DNA of 61,121 bases, from IMG/VR virus record IMGVR_UViG_3300013936_000003, positions 1 to 61,121 of that record, one strand, 5' to 3'. Of this stretch, positions 14,221 to 39,100 are shown piece after piece. The position numbers and the translations under genes are program-made. The notes under the pieces are model-generated. The model made no database searches. It was not told where the DNA came from and saw only the letters and a program-made list of their open reading frames with translations. This stretch comes from a virus. Position 1 is the first letter of the stretch; every line of letters starts with the position of its first letter.

Positions 14221-14232
14221 TTTTTTTGATTT

Positions 14233-23484: not shown

Positions 23485-23922
23485 ATGACTGAGGAAGACA
23501 TCAGAGCGCTGGAGATGCGCTACAGCGAGAGCAAGATACAGCACATCTGCGTGTGCTGGTTCAGGCGCACGCACCCGGAAATCGGCAGTCTGCTGTATGC
23601 CGTGCCCAACGGAGGCGCACGGACGCCCACAGCGGCTGCGATGATGAAGTATGAGGGGGCAGTGAGCGGCGTTGCCGACCTCTGCCTGGCCGTTGAGAAG
23701 TCTCTCTACATTGAGATGAAGGTGCCCAAGCGCCCTGGCAGCAGCGCCGGACGCCAAAGCGCCAATCAGAAGGAGTGGGGAGCGCTGGCCGAGCGGCACG
23801 GCAACCGCTATGTCGTTTGCCACGGCATAGCCGAGTTCGTGCGGGCGGTTTGCACCCACCTCAACGAGGACGCCGAAGCCGCCATGAAGGAAGTGTGCGA
23901 CAAATACCCTACCTACCGATGA
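23485..23922 (+). CDS. VRR-NUC nuclease
   Basis: VPNGG...GVADLCLAVEKSLYIEMKVP...QKEW. Confidence 0.8.
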   Translation: MTEEDIRALEMRYSESKIQHICVCWFRRTHPEIGSLLYAVPNGGARTPTAAAMMKYEGAVSGVADLCLAVEKSLYIEMKVPKRPGSSAGRQSANQKEWGALAERHGNRYVVCHGIAEFVRAVCTHLNEDAEAAMKEVCDKYPTYR

Positions 23923-24863
23923 GCAGCTGGATTAAATTGAGCAGAAAAATCCTTGAGTGGGAGTGGTACGATGACCTGCCCACGCTCAAGGTGTTTATTC
24001 ATTTGTTGCTCACCGCCAATTACGAGCCCAGGAAGTGGCACGGCATAATTGTAGAGCGTGGCCAATTGGTTTGCAGCGTGGCCTCTTTGGCCGCCGATTG
24101 CGGCCTGACAAGCAAGCAAACGAGGCGAGCCCTTGATAATTTGGAAGCAACTCAAGTCGTGGGCAAACGAACAACGACCGCATACACCATCATAACTATT
24201 TGTAATTATGATGTTTATCAATGCGAAAGCAACGATAACAATTTGATAGAGGGCAAACAAAGGGCAAACGAAGGGCAAACAAAAGGGCAAACAAAGGGCA
24301 AACAAAAGGGCAAACAAAGGGCAAACGAACACAATCACTCAACCATTTGTGTTGATGGTAGTTACGAGCTGCCAAGCGAGCAGTTAGGGCAAACGAAGGG
24401 CAAACGAGAGGGCAAACAAAGGGCAAGCGAGAGGGCAACACCTAAAGAAAATAATATAGTATTATCTCCTTCACTTCGTTCAGTCGATAATACTTCTGTT
24501 GGTGTTGCTGACGCACGTGCGTGCGCACGAGGCGAAGCCATTGCAAAATTGCGCTCAGAAGTCTACAACTCTCAGCTTAACGCCGAGAGGGCTATGATGG
24601 CGATAGGCGTCACCGACAAGGTGCGCTATCTCCAAATGTGCGAGGAGGTGTTGGCCGAATGGTCACTGACTGCTGAGGCCGATGACGTCAATTGGCGGCA
24701 TCTCATCAACCAGCTAAGAATTAAGGCCGCCGCCGAACGGCGGCAGCCGAAAACGAAACAGAGCAAAGAGGAATGGCGGCAAAGCCACATGGCAGCCGCC
24801 CAGGCCGCTTTGCTCAGAATACAAAATCGAGCAAATGGAATTGATACCGACAAGACGAGCTGA
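23919..24863 (+). CDS. replisome organizer / replication initiator (DnaD-like winged helix N-terminus)
   Basis: WIKLSRKILEWEWYDDLPTLKVFIHLLLTANY...SVASLAADCGLTSKQTRRALDNLE; carries internal iterons. Confidence 0.75.
   Translation: MSSWIKLSRKILEWEWYDDLPTLKVFIHLLLTANYEPRKWHGIIVERGQLVCSVASLAADCGLTSKQTRRALDNLEATQVVGKRTTTAYTIITICNYDVYQCESNDNNLIEGKQRANEGQTKGQTKGKQKGKQRANEHNHSTICVDGSYELPSEQLGQTKGKREGKQRASERATPKENNIVLSPSLRSVDNTSVGVADARACARGEAIAKLRSEVYNSQLNAERAMMAIGVTDKVRYLQMCEEVLAEWSLTAEADDVNWRHLINQLRIKAAAERRQPKTKQSKEEWRQSHMAAAQAALLRIQNRANGIDTDKTS
24251..24329. repeat. iteron block 1: 7 copies of GGGCAAAC(A/G)AA(A) at 11-12 bp spacing
   Basis: Copies start at 24251, 24262, 24273, 24285, 24296, 24308 and 24319. 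Confidence 0.85.
24387..24440. repeat. iteron block 2: 5 copies of GGGCAA(A/G)C at 11-12 bp spacing, followed by an AT-rich stretch
   Basis: Copies start at 24387, 24398, 24410, 24421 and 24433. Confidence 0.8.
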
Positions 24864-25825: not shown

Positions 25826-25855
25826 TATCAGTAAACAATTAATATATAACAAGTT

Positions 25856-26197
25856 ATGACAACAGAAGAATTATTCAAGCGAATTAAAGGTGTGGCAAAA
25901 GAGGTTGCCGCCGAGAAAAATCTGTCAGTTCTGATTTCTGACAGGACCGACACGTTTCAGATGGGCGCAAAAGACGAGCTCGACAAGAGCGTGTATGTCT
26001 ACAGCTACCCCTGTAATGTCGGCATTCACTACCTCTGCCGGGCCGGCAAGTTCTCGCTGTCCTACCGCATCAGCGACGGCAAGGTGCGCCTTAACAGCTA
26101 CACGATTTTCCCCGATGACGAGGAGGCCGACATCGAGGCCTTTGTGATGCCGATGAAGCGTTTGAAAAACCGAATAAAAAAAGAACTCAAGAAATGA
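25856..26197 (+). CDS. hypothetical protein
   Basis: ORF 113 aa. Confidence 0.65.
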   Translation: MTTEELFKRIKGVAKEVAAEKNLSVLISDRTDTFQMGAKDELDKSVYVYSYPCNVGIHYLCRAGKFSLSYRISDGKVRLNSYTIFPDDEEADIEAFVMPMKRLKNRIKKELKK

Positions 26198-27738
26198 ACG
26201 AGATAAAGAATATAGCGCTGGCGGAAATCGAGCCGTCACCGCTTAACCCACGCAAGACCTTCGACGATGCTCCGCTGCAATCACTCGCAGCGAACATCAA
26301 GGCACAGGGGCTTTTGCAGCCCATCACCATCAGGCCCAAGGACGGGCACTATGAGATTGTGTGCGGCGAGCGCCGCTACCGGGCGGTCAAGATGCTGGGC
26401 TACGAGAGTGTGCCCGCCATCGTGCGAGACCTCAACGATGCCGACGCCTACGACGCAATGATTACCGAAAATCTCAACCGAGAGGATGTTTCACCAGTCG
26501 AGGAGGCCTTTGCGTTTGCACGCCTCAAGGAGCGTGGCGATGATGTGAAGGACATTGCCGCAAGATTTGGCCGCAGTGTCAGATTTGTGCAAGACCGCAT
26601 GCGGCTCAACGACCTCATAGCGCCGCTGATGCTGAAGCTGCGTGACGGCGTGCTGCCCATTGGGGGTGCCATGCAGCTTGCAAAACTCGACAAAGAGAGC
26701 CAGGAGGCCTTTGCCGAGGAGATAGCCGACGAAAAGGAAACCATAGCCGCCTACCGCATCGACGGCTACATCAACAAGCGCTTCCGCTACCTTGCATGCA
26801 AGCCGTGGGCGGACGACTTCAAGGGGCCGTGCGGCGTTGAGTGCTCCAAGTGCAGCGCCAACACCATCAATGCCGGCTGCCTGTTCTACGAGATGCGCAC
26901 AACCGAGGACAACGCACGCTGCACTCTTGGCGGGCGGTTTACCGCCAAGAACGAGGCGTGGTGGCAGCACATTGTCGACGAGTATAAGGCCGACCTTGTG
27001 AAGAAGGGCGAGGGCCTGGAAGTCGGGAAAACCGTCATCGTGTACAACGTCAATTACGGACAGCTTCAAGGCGCCGCCAAGGCGTTCATCGAGCGGCTTG
27101 GCAAGACCTACGAGGTGGCCGAGGCCAACGAACTGTTCAGCGGCTGGTCGAAGTACAATGAGGACGATGAGCGGCTCAAAGAGAAATTGAAGGACGGCAA
27201 GGCGATGCGCTGTCTGCGGATAGTAGTTGACTGGCAAGGTTCATTTGAGCTGTATGATGATTATGGCGAGGTGAGGCCGCCGCAGGAGGGCAGCCAAAAG
27301 GACGCCGCTGAGGCGATGGGCATTGTCGCCAAAAAGAACGACCTTGTGCGCAAGAGCGATGCCGACCTCAGCGCCGCATGCGGCGCAATGCTTCGAGACC
27401 ACGTGCTGGGAGATGCACCGCTGACAGACAACGAGCGTGTCGTCGCCTTGGCGTGCATCATCGCCCAGGACTGGCAGCGCCGGGCCGACTGCCTGACGCT
27501 TGCGAGAAAGAGCCTCAACAATCAAGCTAATTATATCAGAGCGTTCATCAGCAGCTACCTCAGCGGACAGCGTGACGGAGAGTTGTACGAAGCCCAGCGA
27601 CTCGTCGCACAGGAGTGGGAGCCTGAAAAATTCAAGGCGGCATATACCGAGAGCGCTGAGAAACTCGATAAAAAGACGAGCAAACTGAAAGAGCGTCTCG
27701 CAGCGCTCGGGTATGACGAGGAGGGCAAAAGGCTATGA
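26194..27738 (+). CDS. ParB-like protein (N-terminal ParB/Srx domain with GERRxRA box plus HTH) with a ~300-aa Cys-containing C-terminal extension
   Basis: IALAEIEPSPLNPRK...IVCGERRYRAVKMLG...ITENLNREDVSPVEEA...DIAARFGRSVRFVQDRMRL. Confidence 0.85.
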   Translation: MNEIKNIALAEIEPSPLNPRKTFDDAPLQSLAANIKAQGLLQPITIRPKDGHYEIVCGERRYRAVKMLGYESVPAIVRDLNDADAYDAMITENLNREDVSPVEEAFAFARLKERGDDVKDIAARFGRSVRFVQDRMRLNDLIAPLMLKLRDGVLPIGGAMQLAKLDKESQEAFAEEIADEKETIAAYRIDGYINKRFRYLACKPWADDFKGPCGVECSKCSANTINAGCLFYEMRTTEDNARCTLGGRFTAKNEAWWQHIVDEYKADLVKKGEGLEVGKTVIVYNVNYGQLQGAAKAFIERLGKTYEVAEANELFSGWSKYNEDDERLKEKLKDGKAMRCLRIVVDWQGSFELYDDYGEVRPPQEGSQKDAAEAMGIVAKKNDLVRKSDADLSAACGAMLRDHVLGDAPLTDNERVVALACIIAQDWQRRADCLTLARKSLNNQANYIRAFISSYLSGQRDGELYEAQRLVAQEWEPEKFKAAYTESAEKLDKKTSKLKERLAALGYDEEGKRL

Positions 27739-28505
27739 ACGCAACAGCGGAAGAATGCCAAAAGATGGCGTTGAAGGAATTCGGCTCAATGCACCAGTAT
27801 GGCAAGGGCGTGGAAGAGGCGTTCTTCGAGGCGATAGACGATTACTTCACCACCTTTGAGGTTCACAACCTTCGTAAGTTCAATTACGACTACGATGCCG
27901 TGATTGAAGACTTGCGCAAGCGCAGCGAGGTAGACTTCAACGTGCTGCAATACTGGACGCTTGCGACCAACACCTCGCTCGAGGCGGGCAAGGCGCTTGA
28001 CTTTTGGGGCGGCCTTTACGAAGCCTATATGCAGAGCGCAGGCAAGGCCCGGGCGTTTGCTCAGTTCTTCACACCAGTGAGCGTTGCAGAGTTATGCGCC
28101 AAGGTTGCTGAGACCGGCCGTGACGGCGTATACAATGACCCGGCATGCGGCTCGGGTCGTCTGCTTCTCGCCCATTTCACCACTGTCGACAAGAGCAGGT
28201 TTCACTACTATGTCGGCGAAGACCTTGACGAGCAGAGCTGCAAGATGTGCGCCTTGAACATGATGATGAACGGCATGTTTGGACAAGTGATCAAACAGAA
28301 CACGTTGACGCAAGAAGTATATTGGGGCGTGGAAATCAACGAGGGCATGTATCCCCTGCCTGGAGGTTTGCCGACGCTGAGGCTGATGAGCGTCGATGAG
28401 GCGGCCGCAAGCCGTGCGAAACGAGCAGAGCGTGCCGCAAAGCGTGCGTATGCAAAAGAGGAAAAGAATGACAGGCCGCAGCAGAGCGGCCGAAATCTGT
28501 TTTGA
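27735..28505 (+). CDS. HsdM-like N6-adenine methyltransferase fragment (SAM-binding half only; no NPPF/Y catalytic motif)
   Basis: AQFFTPVSVAELC, NDPACGSGRLLL, GEDLDEQSCKMCALNMMMNG are present; no (N/D)PP(F/Y/W) anywhere. Confidence 0.7.
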   Translation: MNATAEECQKMALKEFGSMHQYGKGVEEAFFEAIDDYFTTFEVHNLRKFNYDYDAVIEDLRKRSEVDFNVLQYWTLATNTSLEAGKALDFWGGLYEAYMQSAGKARAFAQFFTPVSVAELCAKVAETGRDGVYNDPACGSGRLLLAHFTTVDKSRFHYYVGEDLDEQSCKMCALNMMMNGMFGQVIKQNTLTQEVYWGVEINEGMYPLPGGLPTLRLMSVDEAAASRAKRAERAAKRAYAKEEKNDRPQQSGRNLF

Positions 28506-28507
28506 CA

Positions 28508-28798
28508 ATGATAAAATTGAACAAGCTGGCCGATTTTATTTACAAAACGGCCATCAGACGAGGGAAGATAAGGGACAGCAGCAGCCCAATGGTGGCCATC
28601 GCCCAAATCTCCTCTGAATGGCGTGAGTTGTGGGAGGCCACCAACGCCAGCAGCGAGCACCTCCCGGCATACAGCGAAAAGGAGGAGGAGGCCGCCGATG
28701 TGATAATAGCGACGATAAGTTTTCTCAAGCACATCGGCTGCGACGACATTGAGGCCCTGCTGCGTGCAAAAATAGCTTACAACAGCCAGCGGCAATGA
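28508..28798 (+). CDS. MazG-like nucleotide pyrophosphohydrolase
   Basis: ISSEWRELWEA...EKEEEAADVIIATISFLKHIG. Confidence 0.7.
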   Translation: MIKLNKLADFIYKTAIRRGKIRDSSSPMVAIAQISSEWRELWEATNASSEHLPAYSEKEEEAADVIIATISFLKHIGCDDIEALLRAKIAYNSQRQ

Positions 28799-28842
28799 CA
28801 CCGCCGCTGCCATAAATAGTGAAGTTTAATTTGTGAAGTTTT

Positions 28843-29517
28843 ATGGAGAGAATTGAAAATTTATCAGTCAAGCTGCTCGACCTCAACAGCGGGCAGCTGA
28901 AAGGGCTTCCACGAAACCCGAGGTTTATAAGGGACGAGCGCTTTGACGCCTTGAAGAAGAGCATCAGCGACAGCCCAGAGATGCTCGGGCTGCGTGAGCT
29001 GATTGTGTTTCCGCTGCTCAGCCGCTACGTGGTCGTGTGCGGCAACATGCGCCTGAGGGCGTGCCGTGAGCTCGGCTACAAGGAGCTGCCGTGCAAGGTG
29101 CTGCCTGCCGACACACCGCCGAAGAAGTTGCGGGAATACGCAGTGAAGGACAATGTGGCTTTTGGCGAGGACGACAAGGACGACTTCGCCAACGACTGGG
29201 ACAAGGCCGAGCTCGTTGACTGGGGCATGGAATTTCCCGAGCCGAAGCCGAAGGACGCCTTCCGCAAGCGGTTTGAGGCCATCACCGACGACACCGCCGT
29301 CTACCCCATCGTGCCGAAATACGACGAGAAGCACGAGCTGTTTGTCATCGAGAGCGGCAGCGAAGTGGACAGCAACTGGCTGCGTGAGCGGCTGGGCATG
29401 CAGAAGATGGTGAGCTACAAGACCGGAAAGGTTGGCAAGAGCAATGTCATCAACATTAAGGACGTGAGGAGGGCGCTGGGCGATGAGAGTAGTGATACCG
29501 AGCCACAAGAGGCCTGA
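28843..29517 (+). CDS. ParB-like nuclease-domain protein
   Basis: LPRNPRFIRDERFDALKKSI...VVVCGNMRLRACRELG. Confidence 0.8.
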   Translation: MERIENLSVKLLDLNSGQLKGLPRNPRFIRDERFDALKKSISDSPEMLGLRELIVFPLLSRYVVVCGNMRLRACRELGYKELPCKVLPADTPPKKLREYAVKDNVAFGEDDKDDFANDWDKAELVDWGMEFPEPKPKDAFRKRFEAITDDTAVYPIVPKYDEKHELFVIESGSEVDSNWLRERLGMQKMVSYKTGKVGKSNVINIKDVRRALGDESSDTEPQEA

Positions 29518-30229
29518 CAGGGTCTTGTGCAAGGCGCTCCTTACCGACCCTATAATCTGCGTGCCGAAGTCCCAACAGGCCTCATACGAGCGCTGCAACC
29601 CCGGCTGCGAGATAGTCACCCACCCCGACAGCGTGGTGGGGCTCATCCCGAAGCGGAACTGGATAGCCAGGCACTTCGGCGATGTGTTCATGGTCGACGA
29701 CGATGTGGACTGCCTCAAATATCTTGCCGCCAGCCCTGGCGAGAGCAGTGTAATCAGAGAGCCGTCAAAGGTGATGGGCATCATCACTTCGCTGCACGAC
29801 TTGGCCGAGATGCTCGACATACACCTCTACGGCTTCACGCCACGCTATGCGCCAATGATGTACGAGGGCACGAGCTTCTACTCGCTGAGCAGCATGATTA
29901 CCGGGTGCAGCTACGGCGTGCGGCCGAGCAAAAACGTGCGCTGGAATGAGGAGCTGAAATTGAAGGAGGACTTTTGGATCAGCTGCTACATCAAGTACAA
30001 GGAGCGTAGGGTGCTGACTGATTTGCGCTACTCTTTTTTGCAGAAGGGCACATTTGTGTCCTCGGGCGGTTTGGCTGCCATTCGCAACCAGGCTGAGGAG
30101 CAGAGGTCGATTTTGCTTATGCGCAAGTACTTTGGCGAGAGCGTGAGGCTCAAGGGCGCCGGGAACAACGGAAAGGAGGCCACACGCTCAAGGGTGCAGT
30201 ACAACATCACCGTTAAATTTCCATTCTAA
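29483..30229 (+). CDS. GT-A-like nucleotide-sugar transferase candidate (DxD)
   Basis: MRVVIPSHKRPDRV...VFMVDDDVD. Confidence 0.5.
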   Translation: MRVVIPSHKRPDRVLCKALLTDPIICVPKSQQASYERCNPGCEIVTHPDSVVGLIPKRNWIARHFGDVFMVDDDVDCLKYLAASPGESSVIREPSKVMGIITSLHDLAEMLDIHLYGFTPRYAPMMYEGTSFYSLSSMITGCSYGVRPSKNVRWNEELKLKEDFWISCYIKYKERRVLTDLRYSFLQKGTFVSSGGLAAIRNQAEEQRSILLMRKYFGESVRLKGAGNNGKEATRSRVQYNITVKFPF

Positions 30230-30246
30230 GAGTTAATAAGTTTGTT

Positions 30247-30272
30247 TAACTCGCTGAAAATCGCTAATTTAG
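30247..30272 (+). promoter_or_regulatory. class-2 intergenic box TAACTCGCTGAAAATCGCTAATTTAG
   Basis: Near-identical to 18685..18710. Confidence 0.55.
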
Positions 30273-30301
30273 TGGATTGAAATTAAACAATTGATTTAAC
30301 T

Positions 30302-30838
30302 ATGATTTTACGGACAATTAACGGGTATGACTTTTTCGAGTGCGCTTCGGCGATGCAGAAGGCCATCAGGCGTGCGGATGTCCGCACGGGCGGTTTTTTC
30401 GCCCTTGAGTTGTGGACGAGCGGCTATCGTGATTACGTGTGGCGGCGGCTTTTCACCATCTCGGCCGAGGACTGCTACGGCCTCATCACTCAAGAGATTG
30501 AGGCGCTGTGGCAGGGTCACGAGCTGGTGAACAAGACGGCCAAGGAGCCGAAGGGCAGAATTTTTGTGAGCAAGGCAGTGGTTTTGCTCTGCGAGTGCCG
30601 CAAGAGCAGGGACGCCGACCACTTGCAGAATTTTGTCTACGACAAGAAATTGTGCGATGCGGCCAAGTGGCTGGAAGACGCCAGGCGTGACCCGCTGCCG
30701 ATACCTCCCTACACCTACGACTGCCACACCAGGGCTGGGAAGAAGAGAGGGCGCACGAAGGAGGAGTTTTTCAAAGAGGAACTCGCAGCCCTCAAGCCGA
30801 GGGTGCGTGGATTGTTTGACGATTTAATTGAGGAATAA
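30302..30838 (+). CDS. stand-alone MgsA/RarA C-terminal-domain-like protein
   Basis: ECASAMQKAIRRADVRTGGFFALELWTSGYRDYVWRRLFTISAEDCYGLI resembles the MgsA_C pattern. Confidence 0.6.
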   Translation: MILRTINGYDFFECASAMQKAIRRADVRTGGFFALELWTSGYRDYVWRRLFTISAEDCYGLITQEIEALWQGHELVNKTAKEPKGRIFVSKAVVLLCECRKSRDADHLQNFVYDKKLCDAAKWLEDARRDPLPIPPYTYDCHTRAGKKRGRTKEEFFKEELAALKPRVRGLFDDLIEE

Positions 30839-30970
30839 ATGAAAAAAAGCATGAATAAAATTTTCGGCAAGGTGATAGTCGCAGTAACATCGCTTGTCTG
30901 TTTTGCAATGATAGTCGGCGTGATAGCGCTGTTAACCTGGTTTGTCAAACTGATATGGAACTTATGCTGA
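30839..30970 (+). CDS. 43-aa small membrane protein (below the ORF-track cutoff)
   Basis: ATG directly after the upstream TAA; MKKSMNKIFGKVIVAVTSLVCFAMIVGVIALLTWFVKLIWNLC. Confidence 0.4.
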   Translation: MKKSMNKIFGKVIVAVTSLVCFAMIVGVIALLTWFVKLIWNLC

Positions 30971-31128
30971 TATACCTGCTGCTGCATCTCATGTGTTTTG
31001 TGATTGCAGCCCGCATCACAGTTGCCGCAAGAGGCTTCCAGGTCGTTTTGCAGGCGCTGTTTGTGCTGATTTTTGCGCCGCTCATCGTGGCTGATGCCGT
31101 GGGGCGGTTTTTGGAACAGAATTTATAG
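30964..31128 (+). CDS. 54-aa small membrane protein (below the ORF-track cutoff)
   Basis: ATGCTGA overlap; MLIYLLLHLMCFVIAARITVAARGFQVVLQALFVLIFAPLIVADAVGRFLEQNL. Confidence 0.4.
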   Translation: MLIYLLLHLMCFVIAARITVAARGFQVVLQALFVLIFAPLIVADAVGRFLEQNL

Positions 31129-31160
31129 CAACTTATTGAGTTATAAAGAGTTAAACAAAT

Positions 31161-31201
31161 GTATTTTGGCGGAGAAACGATTGCATTCTTCGCCAAAATA
31201 C
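31161..31201. promoter_or_regulatory. 11-bp inverted repeat gtattttggcg / cgccaaaatac (19-nt spacer) upstream of gene 31255
   Basis: Read directly. Confidence 0.5.
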
Positions 31202-31254
31202 GTTTACTTTGCAATATAGAAAATAAGAAATAAACAACTAATAATCAACAAGTT

Positions 31255-31560
31255 ATGACTACTGAAATTCAACCAAGAAACTTTGAGATTGCAATAATTG
31301 ACCTCGTGAAAGAGCACCTGGGAGGCTTCGCCGATGAAATCGAAGTTGACGGGCAAAAATTCTATGTGGACGTTGACGCTGAAGTCTCTCAGTATGACGA
31401 GGACGGCGGAGCGTGGGCGCCTGATTACAGCGTCTACACGCTTGACGACATCTGCCTCAACTGCGTGTATGCGCTTGATGATGACGGCAACGAGCTTGAA
31501 GATGTCGAGGTCGTTGTTGACGAGAGTGAATTTGACAGAGCTATTGGCGATGAATTTTAA
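31255..31560 (+). CDS. strongly acidic small protein
   Basis: About 30 D/E against 4 K/R in 101 aa, by my count. Confidence 0.7.
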   Translation: MTTEIQPRNFEIAIIDLVKEHLGGFADEIEVDGQKFYVDVDAEVSQYDEDGGAWAPDYSVYTLDDICLNCVYALDDDGNELEDVEVVVDESEFDRAIGDEF

Positions 31561-31577
31561 TTTGAAATTAACGGAAT

Positions 31578-31907
31578 ATGGACAAGATTAAATTTGAGAG
31601 CGCCTTGATAAAATATGCTGAGGCGCTGATTAAGGAGAAAGGCCGCACCCCCGAATATGGCGGCTACAGGGCTTTGATTGAGAGTGAGGATATACGAGTG
31701 ATTAGGTTACCTCATACTCTTGAGTTGCAAGTTGGGCATCTGTTTTTCCGCTACCACTTCAGATTGAAAGACGAGTTAAGTTATGACTTCAACTGCAAGC
31801 TCTCGGAAGTCAGGATAGCCGACTTCGATGCCTGCTATGAGAGCGGCGAACTCGCCAACATCGGAAAGATAAGAAACGAATTGAAGGAACTTGAAAAACA
31901 AGCATAA
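31578..31907 (+). CDS. hypothetical protein
   Basis: ORF 109 aa. Confidence 0.65.
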   Translation: MDKIKFESALIKYAEALIKEKGRTPEYGGYRALIESEDIRVIRLPHTLELQVGHLFFRYHFRLKDELSYDFNCKLSEVRIADFDACYESGELANIGKIRNELKELEKQA

Positions 31908-31908
31908 A

Positions 31909-32661
31909 ATGAAAGCAGAAATTAACAGACTTGAATGTAAGCGAATAATTGCTGAGAGCACTTTTTTGCAAGGATTTCGTCACGGCTGGGGCAACGGCTA
32001 TGTGGCAGTGCCGCCCGAGCATCCGCTGTGGGGCATCAGCTATATGGACGACAGATTTCCGAGCCTCAACGTCCACGGAGGCGTGACCTTCACCGAGCCA
32101 GTGCTGCTCGGCAAGCGCACGGCAGTGAGCAAGAAAGAGGTGAAAGACGACTATGTCGGCAAGCGCCAGCCGTTGCTGCAATCAGCTGAACTTCTTGACG
32201 GCGAAGTGCCCGGGGCGTGGTGGCTCATCGGCTTCGACACCGTCCACGTTGATGACAACGAGAATAATTGGCCACGTGAGCGGGTCATCGATGAGACAAC
32301 GGAACTTAAAAAACAACTTGATAAATTATTTAACAGAAAGATGAAAAAGGAATTTAGAAATCTGACGCCGCACAAAATCGTGCTGAACAGCGGCGTTGAG
32401 TATGCGCCCACTGGCGTTGTAGCACGAGTGAGCAACACTTTCACCGAGGCCGATGCAGACGGCATTTGCTCTGTCGACTACGGGGATGTTGAGGGCCTGC
32501 CCGAACCTCAGCCAAATGTGCGCTACATCGTGAGCGCTATGGTGCTGGCCGCTGCGAAGTCGCTTGGCCGTACCGACTGCGTGGCCCCTGCGACCGGACA
32601 CCCCGACTGCGTGCGAAACGAAAAGGGGCAGATAGTGAGTGTGCCGTGTTTTGTCAAGTGA
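31909..32661 (+). CDS. hypothetical protein
   Basis: ATG directly after the upstream stop, in frame with track ORF 31891. Confidence 0.65.
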   Translation: MKAEINRLECKRIIAESTFLQGFRHGWGNGYVAVPPEHPLWGISYMDDRFPSLNVHGGVTFTEPVLLGKRTAVSKKEVKDDYVGKRQPLLQSAELLDGEVPGAWWLIGFDTVHVDDNENNWPRERVIDETTELKKQLDKLFNRKMKKEFRNLTPHKIVLNSGVEYAPTGVVARVSNTFTEADADGICSVDYGDVEGLPEPQPNVRYIVSAMVLAAAKSLGRTDCVAPATGHPDCVRNEKGQIVSVPCFVK

Positions 32662-32662
32662 T

Positions 32663-32941
32663 ATGGGTTATACGACTATTTGGATAGAGGGCGAGGAAAA
32701 TTTGAGGAGCTTCTGCTTGAGGCGCTTCAAGATGCCGCCCACATTTGTTGAGACAATAGGCCGTGCCGGGGGTGCCTCAATTCACTTGCTCTACAAGTGG
32801 AGGGAGGACAAGCAGAGCTATGTGGACATGTACCTGCTGTTCATGCCGCACTCCAACGGCACTTGCTACGACATTAACGACGAAAGCAAAAAAAGCTATG
32901 AAGAAATCAGAAGCACTAATGGCGCTATACTCAATGTTTGA
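32663..32941 (+). CDS. hypothetical protein
   Basis: Internal ATG of track ORF 32639, just after the upstream stop. Confidence 0.5.
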   Translation: MGYTTIWIEGEENLRSFCLRRFKMPPTFVETIGRAGGASIHLLYKWREDKQSYVDMYLLFMPHSNGTCYDINDESKKSYEEIRSTNGAILNV

Positions 32942-33089
32942 GCAAGGCGCTGAGGAGGTGTTCGTCAAGGTTGACGGCACGCTCTGCGACTTCACGCTGG
33001 AATATATCGAGGAGCAATTCGACGGCTTCGACACGGCATATCCTGCGTGTGTGGCCCTTGTGCCCACGAGAGAGAATGATAACGGCTGA
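32898..33089 (+). CDS. hypothetical small protein
   Basis: MKKSEALMALYSMFEQGAEE...; 44-nt overlap with the upstream gene. Confidence 0.4.
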   Translation: MKKSEALMALYSMFEQGAEEVFVKVDGTLCDFTLEYIEEQFDGFDTAYPACVALVPTRENDNG

Positions 33090-33199
33090 CGGCTGCTGAT
33101 GCGGGCGGTCGACACTCGGAATTTCGCATATCATAAACAATCGTCCGACTGCTCGCATTTTGCTGAAAGCCTTTTATTAACACGCAAAACAACAAATCA

Positions 33200-33451
33200 A
33201 TGACAAGCGAATTTATCAGAAAATTGCAATTTACAAATTTTACAGAAGAAGTAACTGGGCACGGAACACGTGTGTATCGCTTGCTAAGCGATGAATTGAA
33301 AATAGAAGTGGCCGTGACTTCAAACGAAGAAACTGACTGCTCTATTTACTACGACAAGCAAAACAAACTTATTGCTTTGATGAAAGTGAACTCCTATGAA
33401 GATGTGATTTCTTTTATGGATTTTGTGAAATCATTGCGAGCAAAAAAATGA
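33200..33451 (+). CDS. hypothetical protein
   Basis: ORF 83 aa. Confidence 0.6.
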   Translation: MTSEFIRKLQFTNFTEEVTGHGTRVYRLLSDELKIEVAVTSNEETDCSIYYDKQNKLIALMKVNSYEDVISFMDFVKSLRAKK

Positions 33452-33457
33452 AACCAA

Positions 33458-33832
33458 ATGAACACAACAGAAAATCAGATTAAAGTATTGCAAGCCTTTA
33501 AGGAAGGCAAGACAATTGAAGTGCTTTGCAAAGACTACACGTGGAAAGAAATCAAGGAGGAGGTGGCCGACTACTACCCCTTCAATTTCGCGATCGAGAC
33601 TTACAGAGTCAAGCCGCTGCGCCCCTACAAGGGTGCAGCGGAGTTCCTCGCAGCGCAACAGCAGCATGGGCCGTACATAGACACCACACCGACGCAGAAG
33701 GGCAGCTACTATGATATGCCCATTTTTGTAGGCCATGACTGCGTTGGGTTTAATCACTCGTCATATTCGTTCTCGGAGATGACGGATTTACACTGGCAGG
33801 ACGGCACTCCCTGCGGAATTGAGGAGGTGTGA
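33458..33832 (+). CDS. hypothetical protein
   Basis: ORF 124 aa. Confidence 0.65.
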   Translation: MNTTENQIKVLQAFKEGKTIEVLCKDYTWKEIKEEVADYYPFNFAIETYRVKPLRPYKGAAEFLAAQQQHGPYIDTTPTQKGSYYDMPIFVGHDCVGFNHSSYSFSEMTDLHWQDGTPCGIEEV

Positions 33833-34191
33833 TGAACGAAGCAGTGATTTATCTATTTACAACGAAGTGGGACAGCAGCGACCACATCACCTACATGGCC
33901 GTGCGTGGAGCTGAAAGCGTCGGTACTTGTATGGTGGACTACAGCGGCGGTATGAAGACCGATGCCCTGCTGTGGAACTTGCAAGTTGCTAAGGAGTGCC
34001 GCCAACACGGTATCGCCCGGATGCTCGTGGCTAAGGCGTGCGAGGACGCAGCCGCACGAGGCTGCGAGAAAATCACCCTTGAATGGGGGGCGATGGACAG
34101 CGACGGCTGGATTTTTGACTGGTACAAGCGGCTGGGCTTCAAGTTCGACTGCCACACCCACCGCAGCGTGCGAATGAAGAAAAAATTGTAA
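33829..34191 (+). CDS. GNAT-family N-acetyltransferase
   Basis: Motif A-like CRQHGIARMLVAKACEDAAARG; ATGA coupling. Confidence 0.7.
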   Translation: MMNEAVIYLFTTKWDSSDHITYMAVRGAESVGTCMVDYSGGMKTDALLWNLQVAKECRQHGIARMLVAKACEDAAARGCEKITLEWGAMDSDGWIFDWYKRLGFKFDCHTHRSVRMKKKL

Positions 34192-34281
34192 TGTACCCAA
34201 AACGCCAAATCGGGCACATAGGTAGCTCCTTATGTACCCATTTGCGGTTTTTTTGACCAATTAAAATTGAATATAAGGATT

Positions 34282-35136
34282 ATGGTTTACGGATATTTAC
34301 GTGTCAGCAGCGACACCCAGGATGTGAACTCTCAAAAGCAAGGCGTTGAAAAGTATGCTGCAGATCACGCAATTACAATCGACGAGTACATAACAGATGA
34401 GGGCGTTTCGGGCGGCAAAGACCCCGATAAGCGAAATCTCGGACCACTGCTGAAAAAGATAAAAAAGGGAGACACAATCATTGCCTCGGAAATCAGCCGT
34501 CTGGGACGTGATTTGTACATGGTTATGGACATATTGCACTTTTGCATGGAGCGTGGTGCTATAATTCATACCGTCAAAGACAACTTCACGCTTGGCAATG
34601 ACATTCAGAGCAAAGTGCTGGCGTTCGCTTTCGGCCTCTCTGCTGAAATCGAGCGTCAGATGATACGGCAGCGTACCAAGGAGGGATTAAGGCAGCGAAT
34701 GAAGATTGGCGTGCTCGTTGGCCGCCCGAGTACTGACGAGTATGTGCCTATTTGCAGCGAGGAGGACAAACAGAAAATCCTGGAGCAAGCTAAATGGGGC
34801 GTGCCGTTCAGGCGGCTTGCAACCAATTTTGGTGTAGACCGCAGCACCATGCTGCGGTGGCTCGCTAAGTGGGGCGTCAGCAAGTCAAAATTGCCGACTA
34901 AGAAGAAGTCTACCGCTAATGGCTTTGGCTACAAGGAGAACGACTACAAGATCGTGCCGCTTGAAGAGTCGGTACTGATTGAGGCCATTGAGGCCGACAA
35001 GACCATTCCCGAGATAGCCGAGCTGTTCAAATCGTATAGCTACGAGCAAATTTATGACACTATTTTGTGTACGAAAAAATACAATCAGTTATATCGTAAG
35101 CACGGGCAAAAGAAACTCGTCAAATCAAGGAAGTGA
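34282..35136 (+). CDS. small serine recombinase (resolvase/invertase catalytic domain) with an extended C-terminus
   Basis: MVYGYLRVSSDTQ...ASEISRLGRD...ERQMIRQRTKEGL. Confidence 0.9.
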   Translation: MVYGYLRVSSDTQDVNSQKQGVEKYAADHAITIDEYITDEGVSGGKDPDKRNLGPLLKKIKKGDTIIASEISRLGRDLYMVMDILHFCMERGAIIHTVKDNFTLGNDIQSKVLAFAFGLSAEIERQMIRQRTKEGLRQRMKIGVLVGRPSTDEYVPICSEEDKQKILEQAKWGVPFRRLATNFGVDRSTMLRWLAKWGVSKSKLPTKKKSTANGFGYKENDYKIVPLEESVLIEAIEADKTIPEIAELFKSYSYEQIYDTILCTKKYNQLYRKHGQKKLVKSRK

Positions 35137-35137
35137 A

Positions 35138-35779
35138 ATGATTTATGGGTATATCAGAGTAAGCAGCGACAAGCAGACAGTCGAGAACCAGCGCTTTGAA
35201 ATCACCAACTTTTGCCGCAAACGAAAAATCAAGGTGGACGCCTGGATTGATGAGACCATTAGCGGCACGAAGGCATATGACAAGCGGAAACTCGGAAAGC
35301 TGCTGAAGCACGTGAAGAAGGACGACATCATCATCTGCGCAGAGTTGTCGAGGCTTGGCCGAAACCTCTTCATGATTATGGAAATCCTGAACATCTGCAT
35401 GACCAAGGAGGCCAAGGTATGGACAATCAAGGACAACTACCGCCTGGGTGATGACATCCAAAGCAAGGTGCTGGCTTTCGCCTTTGGCCTCTCGGCCGAG
35501 ATTGAGCGCAACCTCATAAGCCAGCGCACGAAGGAGGCTTTGGCCAGGATAAAGGCCGAGGGCAAGAAACTTGGGCGGCCGGCTGGCACAAATTCCCCCC
35601 CCCACGAGTTGAAGTTGTGGAAGGAGCGTGAATGCATCATTGACAGCTTGGAGAACGGGATGAGCATCAATGGCCTCAGCCATGTGCTGCGCTGCTCAAG
35701 GAACACGCTGAAAATTTTTTTGCAGAGAATTGGATATGCATACAATGGAGGGAATACAGGACAGCACGCCCAAACGTAG
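35138..35779 (+). CDS. small serine recombinase, paralog of the upstream gene
   Basis: MIYGYIRVSSDKQ...CAELSRLGRN...ERNLISQRTKEAL...GRPAG. Confidence 0.9.
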   Translation: MIYGYIRVSSDKQTVENQRFEITNFCRKRKIKVDAWIDETISGTKAYDKRKLGKLLKHVKKDDIIICAELSRLGRNLFMIMEILNICMTKEAKVWTIKDNYRLGDDIQSKVLAFAFGLSAEIERNLISQRTKEALARIKAEGKKLGRPAGTNSPPHELKLWKERECIIDSLENGMSINGLSHVLRCSRNTLKIFLQRIGYAYNGGNTGQHAQT

Positions 35780-35807
35780 GGCGCACGGAAATTTCCGCAC
35801 AACGAAA

Positions 35808-36050
35808 ATGACAAGATACAGACGAGGCTGCATCTACAAGGAGCTGCAGCGCAACACAGGCAAGGGCCGTGACCCCGGTGCCAACGCCACGAGCCGCAGG
35901 CTGGTGAAAGGTGTGGGATATGTCGCCTCGTCACGCTACCGCCGGGTGGTCGAGTTTTGCGTTCATCGCAAGCGGCACAGATTTCGCACCACCAACTTTT
36001 GCAACGCAGTTCGGCAGCTGCTGCAATGGAGAGAGATTTTTAACGATTAA
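35808..36050 (+). CDS. Arg-rich basic small protein (uncertain)
   Basis: Internal ATG of track ORF 35730; MTRYRRGCIYKEL... Confidence 0.3.
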   Translation: MTRYRRGCIYKELQRNTGKGRDPGANATSRRLVKGVGYVASSRYRRVVEFCVHRKRHRFRTTNFCNAVRQLLQWREIFND

Positions 36051-36065
36051 CGAAACACACAAGCA

Positions 36066-36491
36066 ATGGAAAGTTTTTTAGAAAAATTCGACCCTCACAA
36101 ATGGGACAGAGTCTTTGGTCATCCTATCGGGCAGGAGCCCAAGGGGGGCATCGAGCCGGCGGTTTTCCGCCGCTGGTATGAGGACAGGGGACTGCGCAGA
36201 GAAATGGCAGAGGCGAAGCGAACTTGCTCTTACGAGCAGGATCTGGCCGAGGCCTGGCGGCAGAAGGAAGCCGAAAGGCGCAAGGCCGTGAAAGAGCATT
36301 TAAGGCAAGACTTCGCCGTGCCGAAGTCGATGAAAGAGGAGATGTTTGTTGAAATTCACATCAGAGAGATTGGCCAGTTCTTTGTCGGCGCTTTCAACCA
36401 CAAGGGCAATTTTTACAAGTCCTACTCCCCCAACAGGGAGAAGATGGTCGACTGGCTGCTGAGGAAGGGGAAGGAGGTGGGCCGCCTATGA
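36066..36491 (+). CDS. hypothetical protein
   Basis: ORF 141 aa. Confidence 0.65.
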   Translation: MESFLEKFDPHKWDRVFGHPIGQEPKGGIEPAVFRRWYEDRGLRREMAEAKRTCSYEQDLAEAWRQKEAERRKAVKEHLRQDFAVPKSMKEEMFVEIHIREIGQFFVGAFNHKGNFYKSYSPNREKMVDWLLRKGKEVGRL

Positions 36492-36658
36492 CGCTTGACC
36501 CGTGCAAGACGTGCGCCCACTGGCGCTTCACAATCGAGAGCGGCCACCGCCGCTACCGCTGCACAGAGATGAACACCGCCGATGTCAGGCCACGCCGCCA
36601 GTGGTGCATCGGGTGCGGCTGCAAGTTCAGAAGACCGAGAAGGAGGCCGAAAAAATGA
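36488..36658 (+). CDS. 56-aa zinc-ribbon-like basic protein (below the ORF-track cutoff)
   Basis: ATGA overlaps at both ends; CKTC...C...CIGCGC; RRPRRRPKK tail. Confidence 0.5.
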   Translation: MTLDPCKTCAHWRFTIESGHRRYRCTEMNTADVRPRRQWCIGCGCKFRRPRRRPKK

Positions 36659-37320
36659 CAATTGAAGAATTTATGGACAAGGCGATGGCCACCAGCAACG
36701 GGAGAGCCATCGGCCACGACAAGCTGCTGTTCATTTTCAAACACATAGACGAGCGTAAATCCGACCTCGCAATGATTTGCAACGTGCCAGTGTGGCGTGT
36801 ATGGCAGTTGCTGAGAGACACTGGTGCCGTCTACAAGAGGCGCCAGTGCTGGCTCGCAGGCCGCTATGCCGATGATGTGCGCCGGCTTTATGCCGAGCAC
36901 TCGGCAGAGGATGTCGCCAAAAGGCTGCATCTGACCACCCATCAGGTCAAGTATCTTGTGTCCAAGCATCATTGCCGCAAGAGCGAGGAGGGCATGCGCC
37001 GGCTGAACGAGCAGCGCAGAATAATGGCTTTGCAGTCGCCCAGGCGTGTCGAAAAGATAAAAAGCACCTGGCAAAGGCTGATAGCGGAGGAGCGCCGGCG
37101 TATCCTTGAGGGGAAGCCGCAGAAGACAAAAATCAAGTTTTCCGCCACAGACACGAGAAAGCCGAAATGGAGTGCCAGATACCATCTGATGCGCACCTAC
37201 GGCTATGAGGCCGACAGGCAGAGGCCGCACATACTCTATTACCACGTCGGCGCCAAACGCACGCCGAAGGAGCGGCACTATGAAATCAAGTATGGATTTA
37301 AATTTTACCCGAAAAAATGA
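36655..37320 (+). CDS. hypothetical protein (basic, possibly DNA-binding)
   Basis: MTIEEFMDKAM...; the N-terminus of track ORF 36502 is spurious. Confidence 0.65.
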   Translation: MTIEEFMDKAMATSNGRAIGHDKLLFIFKHIDERKSDLAMICNVPVWRVWQLLRDTGAVYKRRQCWLAGRYADDVRRLYAEHSAEDVAKRLHLTTHQVKYLVSKHHCRKSEEGMRRLNEQRRIMALQSPRRVEKIKSTWQRLIAEERRRILEGKPQKTKIKFSATDTRKPKWSARYHLMRTYGYEADRQRPHILYYHVGAKRTPKERHYEIKYGFKFYPKK

Positions 37321-37907
37321 GAAACAAGAAGATACAGGACGTGCGCAGTTTCCACGCACGCAGCAATCTGCAATTCAAGGCTTGGCACGAGGTTGATGTG
37401 ATTTGCGCCAAAATACACGAGCAGGAGACGATCAGAGACAACATGCTCAAGGTGTACAACGACAAGCAGCTGCAGGACAGGCTCGACGGCAAGATAGCCG
37501 AGCTGAGGCGGCAGCGTGACGGGATGCTGCGGAAGATTGACGAAGACCGCAAGGCGATGGTCACGCAGATAGGCGTGGTGTGGGCGTGCGCCAACCTCAT
37601 GGCCACCGTATGCGACGAGTTCGCCGACGTGTTCAAGCGCCTGACCGGCGTAGAGTCCGGCAAACTTGACACCGTCATGTACAGCGAGAAGGCCATCAAG
37701 GAGACCCGTGACCTCATTGACAACGCCGTGACACAAGAGCTGCTTTGGGAGCAGATGGGCGCAATGGTCGACGAAGTCAAGGACTGGTCGCTGAGCACGA
37801 CCTTCGCCGATGTGAGCGACCGCTTCGAGGCCCGGGCGGTAGGACTCGTGAAGGAGCTGAAGGCCGATCTCGAGAAAAAGTTCACCCGTCAGCTTGAGCG
37901 GCGATAA
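37317..37907 (+). CDS. hypothetical coiled-coil protein
   Basis: ORF 196 aa, ATGA coupling. Confidence 0.65.
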   Translation: MRNKKIQDVRSFHARSNLQFKAWHEVDVICAKIHEQETIRDNMLKVYNDKQLQDRLDGKIAELRRQRDGMLRKIDEDRKAMVTQIGVVWACANLMATVCDEFADVFKRLTGVESGKLDTVMYSEKAIKETRDLIDNAVTQELLWEQMGAMVDEVKDWSLSTTFADVSDRFEARAVGLVKELKADLEKKFTRQLERR

Positions 37908-37931
37908 TTTTGTTATTTGTTTGATTTTTAG

Positions 37932-37939
37932 TAACTTTG
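37932..37939 (+). promoter_or_regulatory. -7 box TAACTTTG(TAT), 7 nt before the ATG at 37947
   Basis: Matches TAnnTTTG. Confidence 0.5.
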
Positions 37940-37946
37940 TATCGCT

Positions 37947-38108: not shown

Positions 38109-38421
38109 GCTGATGCGCCTGCGCCTGACCGAGCTGGACATATGCCTGCGCACGCTGCTGAGGCTGGAGGACGCAGGCATACGCACGCTCGGGGAGCTGA
38201 CAGTGCGCACGGCCGACGAGTTGTGCGGATGCCGTGGCATAGGCGTGACCGCCCTTGCTGAGATAGAGAGCGCTTTGTCGGGCATAGGCCTGGCACTGCG
38301 CAAGGAGGACACACAGGCTGATGAGCAAAAAACATCATCGGACAATGAAAGTGATAGTGACAGGGAGCGGGGGCTTCATCGGCAAGCGCCTCGTGGCCGC
38401 CCTAAGAAGAAGGGGCGATGA
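38056..38421 (+). CDS. RNA polymerase alpha-subunit C-terminal-domain (alphaCTD)-like HhH protein
   Basis: LRLTELDICLRTLLRLEDAGIRTLGELTVRTADELCGCRGIGVTALAEIESALSGIGLAL. Confidence 0.7.
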   Translation: MRMTIEELIYAREHHIETLMRLRLTELDICLRTLLRLEDAGIRTLGELTVRTADELCGCRGIGVTALAEIESALSGIGLALRKEDTQADEQKTSSDNESDSDRERGLHRQAPRGRPKKKGR

Positions 38422-39100
38422 GGTTGTCGGCATCGACCGCCTTAACGGAGACGAGGCCGGCGAAATTAGCGCACACCTTACAGGCGTGGATTTCGTCTAC
38501 CACCTTGCAGCGCAGACAAGCGTGTTCAACGGCGACCTCAACGCCATCGAACGGGACAACATCGCAGCGTTCATCACCGTCTGCACCGCATGCGCCAAGC
38601 GTGGCGTGCCGCTGGTTTATGCCAGCTCAAGCACCGCAATCAACACCACAAGCCTCTACGGCCTCAGCAAGAGGTTTGACGAGGACTTCGCGGCGCTCTA
38701 CCACCCCGGGGCCATAGGGGTGAGGCTGCACAACGTGTACGGCCCGTCACCACGTCAAGGGACTCTCCTCTGGCATTTGATGAGCGACGACAAGGTGACG
38801 CTTTACAACGGAGGCCGGAACCTGCGGCATTTCACGTATGTTGATGATGCCGTGGCCGGGCTGATGGCGGCTGAGAGGCTCACAGGCCGGGAGCAGTTGG
38901 CGAACATAGCCAACCCCGAGCTGACCTCGACGCTGGATTTTGCCCGGGCGGTCGCCGCCCGAAACGGGGTGAGGCTGGAACTCAACGAAGAGTGCCGCCC
39001 CCTGGACAAAGTTGTGCAGCGCATAGACAGGGGGGTGTACACGATACCCCTACCCTACAAGTCCTACATCGAGGGCGTCAGGCTCTCGACAGGAGGATAA
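38345..39100 (+). CDS. NAD-dependent epimerase/dehydratase (short SDR)
   Basis: MKVIVTGSGGFIGKRL...; YGLSK (YxxxK). Confidence 0.85.
   Translation: MKVIVTGSGGFIGKRLVAALRRRGDEVVGIDRLNGDEAGEISAHLTGVDFVYHLAAQTSVFNGDLNAIERDNIAAFITVCTACAKRGVPLVYASSSTAINTTSLYGLSKRFDEDFAALYHPGAIGVRLHNVYGPSPRQGTLLWHLMSDDKVTLYNGGRNLRHFTYVDDAVAGLMAAERLTGREQLANIANPELTSTLDFARAVAARNGVRLELNEECRPLDKVVQRIDRGVYTIPLPYKSYIEGVRLSTGG

Follow-up and report, generated by a model that had tools for sequence, protein, structure and literature searches.

A conserved ParB-TAGT-RarA-C gene cassette in a Bacteroidota phage as a candidate for DNA glycosylation without a recognisable base hydroxylase

Two recent studies ask what phage glycosyltransferases (GTs) of the GT-A/TAGT type do where no base hydroxylase is encoded nearby. 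Such orphans make up ~65% of ~25,000 GT contigs (10.1101/2023.12.21.572611) and 288 of 753 GT-encoding phage genomes, the latter being the 'solitary TAGT' group whose function is stated to be undefined (PMC13216743). The same question is raised by a gene string in the IMG/VR virus record IMGVR_UViG_3300013936_000003, of which positions 1 to 61,121 were analysed (the window, 61,121 nt). A preliminary description of this DNA had recognised six consecutive genes, here g1 to g6, and had suggested that, together with an IbrB-like gene, they form a single DNA or nucleotide-pool modification or anti-defence module. The six open reading frames (ORFs) are indeed present on the + strand at the positions described, contiguous and partly overlapping (by 4 nt between g1 and g2 and between g2 and g3, and by 35 nt between g4 and g5). 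They are, however, not one unit. The core is g3-g6, which encodes a MazG-fold protein, a ParB-fold protein, a TAGT glycosyltransferase and a stand-alone C-terminal domain of the RarA/MgsA type (RarA-C; MgsA_C in Pfam). One large group of 'orphan' TAGTs thus turns out to be part of an obligate three-protein cassette (ParB-fold protein, TAGT and free RarA-C), which may glycosylate phage DNA.

Viral loci were collected around TAGT homologues down to ~27% identity and all of their ORFs were clustered; the tally was repeated with profile hidden Markov models on 96 non-redundant TAGT sequences. The denominators vary, since each count takes only the loci with enough flank on the side concerned. A gene for a ParB protein consisting of a nucleotide-binding domain (NBD) and a C-terminal domain (CTD) lies directly upstream of the TAGT gene in 89 of 91 loci, and a RarA-C gene lies within 5 kb downstream in 67 of 70, being adjacent in 52 of these 70. 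The genes always present across the loci are only these three, ParB, TAGT and MgsA_C; a MazG-fold gene is found upstream of the ParB gene in 46 of 86 loci and a g2-type gene in 15 of 96. The association was also seen in the reverse direction: when the only criterion for choosing 25 loci was DNA coding for the ParB C-terminal peptide PIVPKFxEKY, TAGT followed immediately downstream in all 25 and RarA-C was found in 20, the other five being cut by contig ends. The ParB-TAGT-MgsA_C synteny holds at ~25-30% identity and in lytic actinophages, and in most loci the cassette is located just upstream of the terminase genes. Locus L042 (7344-10703) has the order ParB-TAGT-MgsA_C-ParB-TAGT, that is, two divergent pairs and one RarA-C gene. 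A tandem second TAGT is present in 10 of the 96 loci, and in loci other than L042 the tandem TAGT genes come without a second ParB. A lack of co-conservation in related phages had been named beforehand as the result that would speak against a module; g3-g6, with a nucleotide-sugar gene of the short-chain dehydrogenase/reductase (SDR) family described below, proved to be co-conserved.

The presumed catalytic subunit is encoded by g5 (29483-30229, + strand; 248 aa), a GT-A glycosyltransferase of the TAGT/JGT type. It matches Pfam TAGT (PF20691) at 8.9e-13, with 49.1 bits against a cutoff of 27.5 and with residues 1-88 only being aligned, and phrog_842 over its full length at 3e-37. The motif R...DDD...ED(Y/F) defines phage GT-A DNA glycosyltransferases and trypanosome JGT (10.1101/2023.12.21.572611); in g5, R10 and D72-D73-D74 are invariant among 11 diverse homologues, and the window protein has KEDFW. 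The previous assignment as a GT-A protein with a DDD signature is borne out, and the protein belongs to a family of phage DNA sugar-transferases. A PDB sequence search with TAGT found no relative, and PADLOC and NCBIfam gave nothing for g3-g6. Neither megablast of the region against INPHARED phages nor tblastn of g5 against the same cultured phages produced a match. A profile search of genome contigs with the TAGT alignment also found nothing, and a single-protein scan found only 7 loci, in Bacteroidota metagenome-assembled genomes (MAGs).

The gene overlapping the start of g5, g4 (28843-29517, + strand; 224 aa), encodes a ParB NTPase-domain protein with no helix-turn-helix (HTH) and with a family-specific C-terminal domain of ~85 aa. 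By itself g4 is below the Pfam cutoff for ParB_N (21 versus 26 bits) and has no HTH_ParB match in Pfam; the profile of its family matches the ParB CTPase domains in PDB (4umk at 1e-14, 6sdk and Noc), the family keeps the NPR and G(H/N)xR boxes, and g4 matches the ParB part of phrog_498 at 1.4e-10. The C-terminal domain has the motif YPIVPKF.EKY..FII..NE.D...SYK and was found in 142 representative clusters among 1.84 billion proteins, nearly always as the C-terminus of proteins of 200-270 aa with the same architecture. The domain also matched a 1110-aa protein (P0338) five times, but this protein is a GAF-repeat histidine kinase and the match was taken as spurious. A search for loci related to the distant ParB-CTD proteins P0386 and P0351 found none. 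A role of the ParB protein as a nucleotide kinase or nuclease, considered in the preliminary description, received no support, and the nearest precedent among characterised proteins is a ParB by which a DNA-modifying enzyme is switched on when acting on double-stranded DNA (PMC13229309). In that work, phage ParBs with NBD and CTD and no DNA-binding domain are required by a subclass of thymine dioxygenases (5mYOXs, 5-methylpyrimidine dioxygenases) acting on double-stranded DNA, with specificity for the cognate pair, and no domains accompany phage 5mYOXs more often than GTs and ParBs (PMC13229309). Furthermore, fusions of ParB_N with DNA methyltransferases are common in phages (PMC12704722), and DNA GTs that depend on an epimerase have been described (10.1101/2023.12.21.572611). 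In the present cassette, the enzyme translationally coupled to the ParB is the GT itself; thus, g4-g5 may be read as a ParB-assisted DNA glycosyltransferase.

The third constant gene, g6 (30302-30838, + strand; 178 aa), encodes a RarA/MgsA C-terminal domain that stands alone. Taken by itself, the window protein falls below the MgsA_C cutoff (17.7 versus 27 bits), whereas its relatives pass this cutoff with 32-58 bits (for example, 58.5 in L025). The family profile matches 2r9g at 3.6e-15 and residues 251-387 of E. coli RarA (3pvs) at 3e-9, and the RarA signature residues S..QK..RR, ED, K.R and D.H are invariant. The match to RarA 251-387 covers nearly all of the 178 aa, and there is no AAA+ module. 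Between g5 and g6 lies the class-2 box (30229-30295), a promoter-like intergenic element that repeats positions 18667-18733 ahead of the ERF operon, the two being 86% identical over 44 nt and an adjacent stretch of 30 nt; a core of 26 nt is found at exactly two places in the window, against an expectation of 0. The previous recognition of g6 as a free MgsA_C domain behind a class-2 box therefore stands, given the family profile and the genuine repeat. The shared element of ~65 nt has AGAGTTA...TAACTC as an inverted repeat, with CGCTGAAAAT.GCTAATTTAG and AAATTAAACAATT after it. Judged from these letters, it is probably a shared promoter or operator of the Bacteroidota type, which would give g6 its own early-type promoter. 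In the literature searched, we found no study that connects MgsA/RarA-type domains with phage glycosyltransferases or with ParB.

The cassette often begins with a gene of the g3 type (28502-28798, + strand; 98 aa), which encodes a small all-alpha protein resembling NTP pyrophosphohydrolases. Sequence searches with g3 gave no Pfam match and no PDB profile match; phrog_18176 was matched at 2e-30, and PHROG pyrophosphatases only weakly, at 8e-4 and 3e-3. The AlphaFold2 (AF2) model has a mean predicted local distance difference test score (pLDDT) of 92.4, and the top Foldseek matches are all of the MazG type (DCTPP1, YpjD and S-2L MazG; probability 1.0, TM-score 0.64-0.70). In the acidic motif ExxE...EExxD, E39, E61-63 and D66 are invariant in close relatives and E42 is nearly so, although the first acidic motif is not kept in more distant members of the cassette. 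The MazG call of the preliminary description thus holds at the level of the fold, because Foldseek returns only MazG-type enzymes and the acidic residues are present, but it has no counterpart at the level of Pfam or PDB sequence matches.

The SDR gene (38321..39100, + strand) encodes a nucleotide-sugar epimerase/dehydratase (Pfam Epimerase at 1.6e-21; phrog_540 at 1.4e-42) and likely supplies the sugar donor. It is directly 3' of the g6 homologue in L001 and L089 and is near TAGT in 36 of 93 loci. In the window, it is separated from g6 by a block of ~7.5 kb (~30840-38320) that has no counterpart in related loci within the flanks examined. The block contains small ORFs, a GNAT acetyltransferase gene (33829-34191), two tandem serine recombinase genes (34267-35136 and 35054-35779) and genes of unknown function, and it looks like an inserted mobile segment. 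MazG and a nucleotide-sugar enzyme had been expected as partners of the GT, and the position of the MazG-fold gene in about half of the loci and of the SDR gene after g6 in relatives agree with this expectation. The neighbour families, from Pfam searches of 71 representative clusters, include WbqC, PIG-L, epimerases and methyltransferases; these varied sugar-tailoring families are consistent with diversification of the donor sugar.

The cassette reaches beyond Bacteroidota. Homologues of g6 with 42-44% identity were found in 56 Microbacterium and 5 Arthrobacter phage records, and lytic Microbacterium phages of cluster EC carry a remote version of the cassette. In one of them, Paschalis (NC_047976, 47266-51747, L116), the order is ParB-like gp83, GT gp84, UDP-glucose dehydrogenase gp85 and g6 homologue gp86. 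Paschalis gp84 is 24% identical to g5 (E 9e-7). The block is at the right end of the genome and adjoins the terminase genes on the circular map. The label 'AAA-ATPase' on gp86 is misleading, because this protein is a stand-alone MgsA_C-type domain without the ATPase module. A small sigma-factor-like gene and a gene for a 441-aa 'glycosyltransferase' with no Pfam match precede the ParB gene of Paschalis. The annotation of the Paschalis genome lists no thymidylate synthase, dioxygenase or DNA polymerase (PMC7302621).

We tentatively prefer, at slightly less than even confidence, the explanation that g3-g6 and the displaced SDR gene are a ParB-assisted cassette for phage DNA glycosylation coupled to replication or packaging. 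The obligate company of ParB and RarA-C points to DNA as the substrate of TAGT. In the proposed mechanism, phage DNA would be glycosylated late in replication, just before packaging. The g5 protein would be the catalytic GT-A, moving the sugar from an NDP-sugar tailored by the SDR enzyme or, in other lineages, by an enzyme of the UDP-glucose dehydrogenase, WbqC or PIG-L type. The g4 protein would bind NTP and engage DNA as the activator or clamp of the transferase, with the gene overlap fixing the ratio of g4 to g5, in parallel with the 5mYOX-associated ParBs that switch on phage thymine dioxygenases on double-stranded DNA. The g6 protein may tether or target the complex to replication intermediates (single-stranded DNA-binding protein [SSB], fork structures or DNA ends), a role suggested by its homology to the C-terminal region of RarA, and g3 may trim the nucleotide pool as a pyrophosphohydrolase. 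The acceptor would be either a base produced by an enzyme that we did not recognise or something other than a hydroxymethyl-pyrimidine.

Several observations weigh against this explanation, among them the missing precursor. In the characterised TAGT/GT-A DNA transferases, the sugar goes on a hydroxyl that comes from a 5mYOX of the TET/JBP type or from a thymidylate-synthase homologue (PMC13216743, PMC13326640, 10.1101/2023.12.21.572611), and Pyle et al. regard GT contigs without 5mYOX or thymidylate-synthase (ThyS) genes as 'less likely' to serve DNA hypermodification (10.1101/2023.12.21.572611). The genome is that of a complete temperate tailed phage of ~62 kb from Muribaculaceae-type Bacteroidota; the window takes up nearly all of a metagenome contig of 62,107 nt (ERZ808292 NODE_22), the right-end genes run on into the left-end genes in another assembly, and thus the entire phage genome is in view. 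No called gene of this genome matches Tet_JBP, thymidylate synthase or another plausible base hydroxylase in Pfam, and no hydroxylated-base enzyme stands alongside g5. Likewise, neither Tet_JBP nor thymidylate synthase is among the 25 listed of the 43 families matched by the 71 representative neighbour clusters; a rare Tet_JBP in a single-member family may occur at an individual locus, but such a gene does not belong to the conserved set of the cassette. One neighbour is a 2OG-FeII_Oxy_3 protein (L035, 13019-13723), ~5 kb downstream and past a terminase gene. It was rejected as the precursor enzyme: its cluster has three loci, apparently one contig represented three times, and it is not conserved. 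One C5-methylase (L076, 1176-2096) comes from another rare neighbour cluster, of 2-3 loci. In the g4 protein, no DNA-binding domain can be recognised, and the AF2 model of g4 is of low quality (pLDDT 60, below 55 in the C-terminal domain), likely because only ~70%-identical homologues were used as input. PADLOC, NCBIfam and PDB gave no functional clue for the C-terminal domain of g4 or for g5. What the sequences show are the family assignments, the intact catalytic motifs, the two-way obligate synteny and the lack of a recognisable 5mYOX or ThyS enzyme; DNA as the substrate, the roles of the partners and the timing are inferred.

If the absence of a hydroxylase is taken at face value, the cassette might glycosylate DNA with no need for a hydroxymethyl- or hydroxy-pyrimidine precursor. 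The sugar would then go on a canonical base or on another group of DNA, for example a DNA end or a replication intermediate that the RarA-type domain recognises, and the ParB would be an NTP-gated clamp that delivers the transferase. We consider this combination possible but unlikely. If true, it would mean a new DNA glycosylation chemistry and a new job for the ParB fold and for the RarA C-domain, found widely among gut Bacteroidota prophages and also in actinophages in culture.

Another possibility is that the acceptor is not DNA. Glycosylation of virions (capsid or tail) by actinophage GTs is known. The g5 protein may act on virion proteins, on a component of the host envelope or on its own partner, with the ParB-like and RarA-C proteins being regulators or merely co-transcribed. 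Such an activity would suit a genome in which no precursor-making enzyme is detected and a cassette that adjoins terminase and structural genes. Furthermore, the epimerase, UDP-glucose dehydrogenase, WbqC and PIG-L proteins are as in surface-glycan pathways, and GT-A relatives glycosylate diverse acceptors (Pyle et al.). However, the obligate partners in two host phyla belong to families of DNA transactions and are neither chaperones nor structural proteins, and the characterised members of the TAGT/JGT lineage act on DNA (PMC13216743). There is also no signal peptide or membrane-type partner (GtrA/B), as judged from annotations only. We regard a non-DNA acceptor as possible but unlikely.

A conservative variant of DNA modification, namely the classical glycosylation of hydroxymethyl-pyrimidines, would require that 5-hydroxymethyluracil (5hmU) or 5-hydroxymethylcytosine (5hmC) is made by a divergent hydroxylase of the phage or of the host; g4 would then activate this hydroxylase and not the GT. 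Thousands of contigs were retrieved by phage 5mYOX profiles without a Pfam TET/JBP annotation (O'Toole et al., PMC13229309), many ORFs of the window have no family assignment, and g4 shares the overall architecture and the N-x-R and G-x-x-R boxes with 5mYOX-associated ParBs. However, no unannotated ORF of fitting size is co-conserved across the ~100 loci, the constant genes being just ParB, TAGT and MgsA_C, and the cultured Microbacterium phages have no annotated candidate. A cryptic hydroxylase is thus quite unlikely in our opinion.

The two genes at the head of the string are variable accessories, separate from the core. The g1 gene (26194-27738, + strand; 514 aa) encodes a canonical-type CTP-switch ParB (ParB_N at 2e-26 and HTH_ParB at 1e-9 in Pfam; TIGR00180 with 124 bits against a cutoff of 58.45). 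Residues 1-184 match T. thermophilus Spo0J (1vz0) at 2e-34 and include the GERRYRA and ENLNRED boxes, and the long Cys-containing C-terminus (~330 aa) had no match in a PDB sequence search. The domains and boxes are those of a partition ParB, and the previous description of a full ParB with GERRxRA, HTH and a Cys-containing C-terminus but no ParA was correct: the ParA family is absent from the Pfam lists covering every called gene of the circular genome. ParB_N begins at residue 3, which leaves no room for an N-terminal ParA-activating peptide. A g1-type gene occurs in 39 of 93 loci at variable distance and order, and is 3' of the cassette in L028. A fourth ParB was considered at 36533-36558, where the repeat D19 is shared with the GERRYRA-coding DNA of g1, but the frame there encodes no ParB.

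The g2 gene (27735-28505, + strand; 256 aa) encodes a truncated HsdM-like protein, which aligns only to positions 4-118 of the 311-position N6_Mtase profile and is matched by HsdM structures at 4e-12. Motifs X, I, II and III are present (GQFFTP, DPxCGSGR, D.D and A.NM..HG, invariant or nearly so). The catalytic motif IV NPPF/Y/W is absent, one invariant Asn (N202) is left, and the protein ends ~50 residues further on. As the preliminary description had it, g2 is the S-adenosylmethionine (SAM)-binding half of an HsdM-like protein, the C-terminal half of the fold being missing, and it represents a conserved family of ~260 aa (phrog_5696). In relatives, other genes occupy this slot, for example an SNF2/N6_N4-methylase fusion; in the lineage L036-L046 the g2-type gene lies between the TAGT and MgsA_C genes. 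Relatives of g2 (for example, L037, 9999-10781, and L046, 9884-10693) end in GQLSLF, GQMSLF or QQLHLFNF, and the window protein has a degenerate GRNLF instead. The QLSLF-type end resembles the bacterial beta-clamp-binding pentapeptide, which suggests a clamp-tethered SAM-binding protein. Proteins within the cassette that end in such motifs, as in L036-L046, would fit a function on DNA.

These results bear on a wider form of the original proposal, namely that all six genes and IbrB are one nucleotide-pool or anti-defence system; in it, the ParB/Srx proteins would be kinases or nucleases, MazG would deplete a nucleotide and the SAM-binding half would be a decoy. The genes are contiguous, co-oriented and partly overlapping, the MazG fold was confirmed, and g2 belongs to a conserved family of truncated HsdM-like proteins, for which interference with type I restriction-modification is plausible. 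However, g1, with its variable order, and g2, in some 15 of 96 loci, are not co-conserved with g3-g6, the IbrA relatives are on viral contigs other than those with TAGT loci, PADLOC and anti-defence families do not match g3-g6, and kinase or nuclease activity of g4 is unsupported. Such a single system is therefore very unlikely. Least probable of all is a row of unrelated housekeeping genes adjacent through an early-operon layout (g1 and g4 for partition or transcriptional silencing, g6 for replication restart and g5 for seroconversion), for although g1 is a canonical ParB/Noc-type protein and orphan ParBs are frequent in temperate phages (PMC12704722), the phage integrates (an integrase is present) and has no ParA, g4 has no HTH, and the ParB-TAGT-MgsA_C synteny is kept in both search directions, at the low identities given above and in lytic actinophages.

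Other features of the genome are described here for completeness. The called genes include those for integrase, ERF, SSB, SNF2 helicase, VRR-NUC and a DnaD-like initiator, as well as TerS, TerL, portal, capsid and tape-measure proteins. Near homologues carry names from Muribaculaceae and Lepagella, and they were also found in MAGs of Sodaliphilus, Bacteroides, Paludibacteraceae and Flavobacteriaceae. The IbrA-like, IbrB-like and SDR genes match the previous description. Three co-oriented genes at 7566-10572 encode an SNF2-like helicase fragment with DpdE/ZorD/DrmD-like matches, an IbrA-like PAPS-reductase/DUF3440 protein with weak DndC matches, and an IbrB-like ParB-fold protein; from their sequences, they are a candidate for a separate DNA-modification or regulatory module. 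IbrA/IbrB was dropped as a source of the acceptor base on account of the separate contigs mentioned above. Two clusters of 11-12-nt direct repeats, AGGGCAAAC(A/G)AA, with ~10 copies altogether, are located at 24227-24461 within the gene for the DnaD-like replication initiator (23775-24863); they resemble the iterons of a phage origin lying inside its initiator gene, in the manner of lambda O. A second repeated leader, TAAACAA(T/C)TAAT...ACAAGTTATGAC, is found at 25832-25867, 31231-31266 and 16399-16434, where it spans the start codons of a 113-aa gene 5' of g1, a 101-aa gene at 31255 and a small gene at ~16423, respectively, and is a putative shared translation-initiation or promoter-proximal box. 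Tyrosine recombinases are encoded by two genes, at 13066-14274 (- strand) and 17553-18659 (+ strand); the former shows weak similarity in the catalytic domain (Phage_integrase, E 0.002) and clear Arm/SAM-like N-terminal domains. A Sigma70_r2 protein (54570-55028) and a WYL_2 protein (55143-55460) are encoded between the tape-measure and distal tail genes, which is unusual for regulators.

A ParB-assisted DNA glycosylation cassette would extend the principle of ParB as an activator of DNA-modifying enzymes from dioxygenases to glycosyltransferases. For the RarA C-domain, the biochemistry of which is little understood, the cassette provides a defined genetic context. If the DNA is modified, this bears on the evasion of restriction and CRISPR and on how abundant gut phages behave in sequencing and cloning. 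A version of the cassette occurs in cultured SEA-PHAGES isolates, and the question is thus open to direct test.

Compared with known systems, g5 shares with TAGT (PF20691, including the T2/T6 beta-glucosyl-HMC-alpha-glucosyltransferase, phage GT-A enzymes and JGT) the family, the GT-A fold family and the motifs, and the cassette of the window has the epimerase pairing in common with the 'subclass II' clusters of Pyle et al. The substrates of characterised TAGTs are 5hmC, glucosyl-5hmC or 5hmU from ThyS-type or TET/JBP enzymes, none of which was detected here, and g5, unlike these enzymes, falls in the 'solitary TAGT' group. The g3 protein is like the MazG-type enzymes DCTPP1, YpjD and S-2L MazG in its fold and its acidic metal-binding residues, and such enzymes clean the nucleotide pool in other base-modifying phages; it differs in lacking a sequence-level match, and only about half of the cassettes have its gene. 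The g6 protein is homologous to the C-terminal (lid and oligomerisation) region of RarA/MgsA/WRNIP1 and keeps the signature residues, whereas, unlike those proteins, the g6 type is a phage protein of 180-200 aa without the AAA+ ATPase and is always linked to ParB-TAGT.

The ParB-dependent 5mYOX pathways (O'Toole et al. 2026, PMC13229309) resemble the cassette in having a small HTH-less ParB beside a DNA base-modifying enzyme, in GTs, sugar epimerases and terminase genes as frequent neighbours, and in a post-replicative logic; a similar cognate pairing is hinted at by the duplicated ParB-TAGT pairs of L042. The g4 protein has the NBD and the C-terminal domain without HTH of the activator ParBs, the C-terminal domain of 5mYOX-ParBs being compared by description only, and in g4 this domain is a private family. 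In contrast to those pathways, there is no 5mYOX in the cassette or genome, and none is a cognate neighbour of g4; its neighbour is TAGT, and its gene overlaps the GT gene itself. An obligate RarA-C partner is not described for the 5mYOX pathways. With the ParB_N-DNA methyltransferase fusions (PMC12704722; phrog_498), the cassette shares the coupling of a ParB NTPase domain to a DNA-modifying module and a similar position ahead of the packaging genes; unlike in these fusions, g4 and g5 are separate and translationally coupled, and the partner is a glycosyltransferase. The cassette would thus extend the known ParB-linked phage DNA hypermodification systems in a new form.

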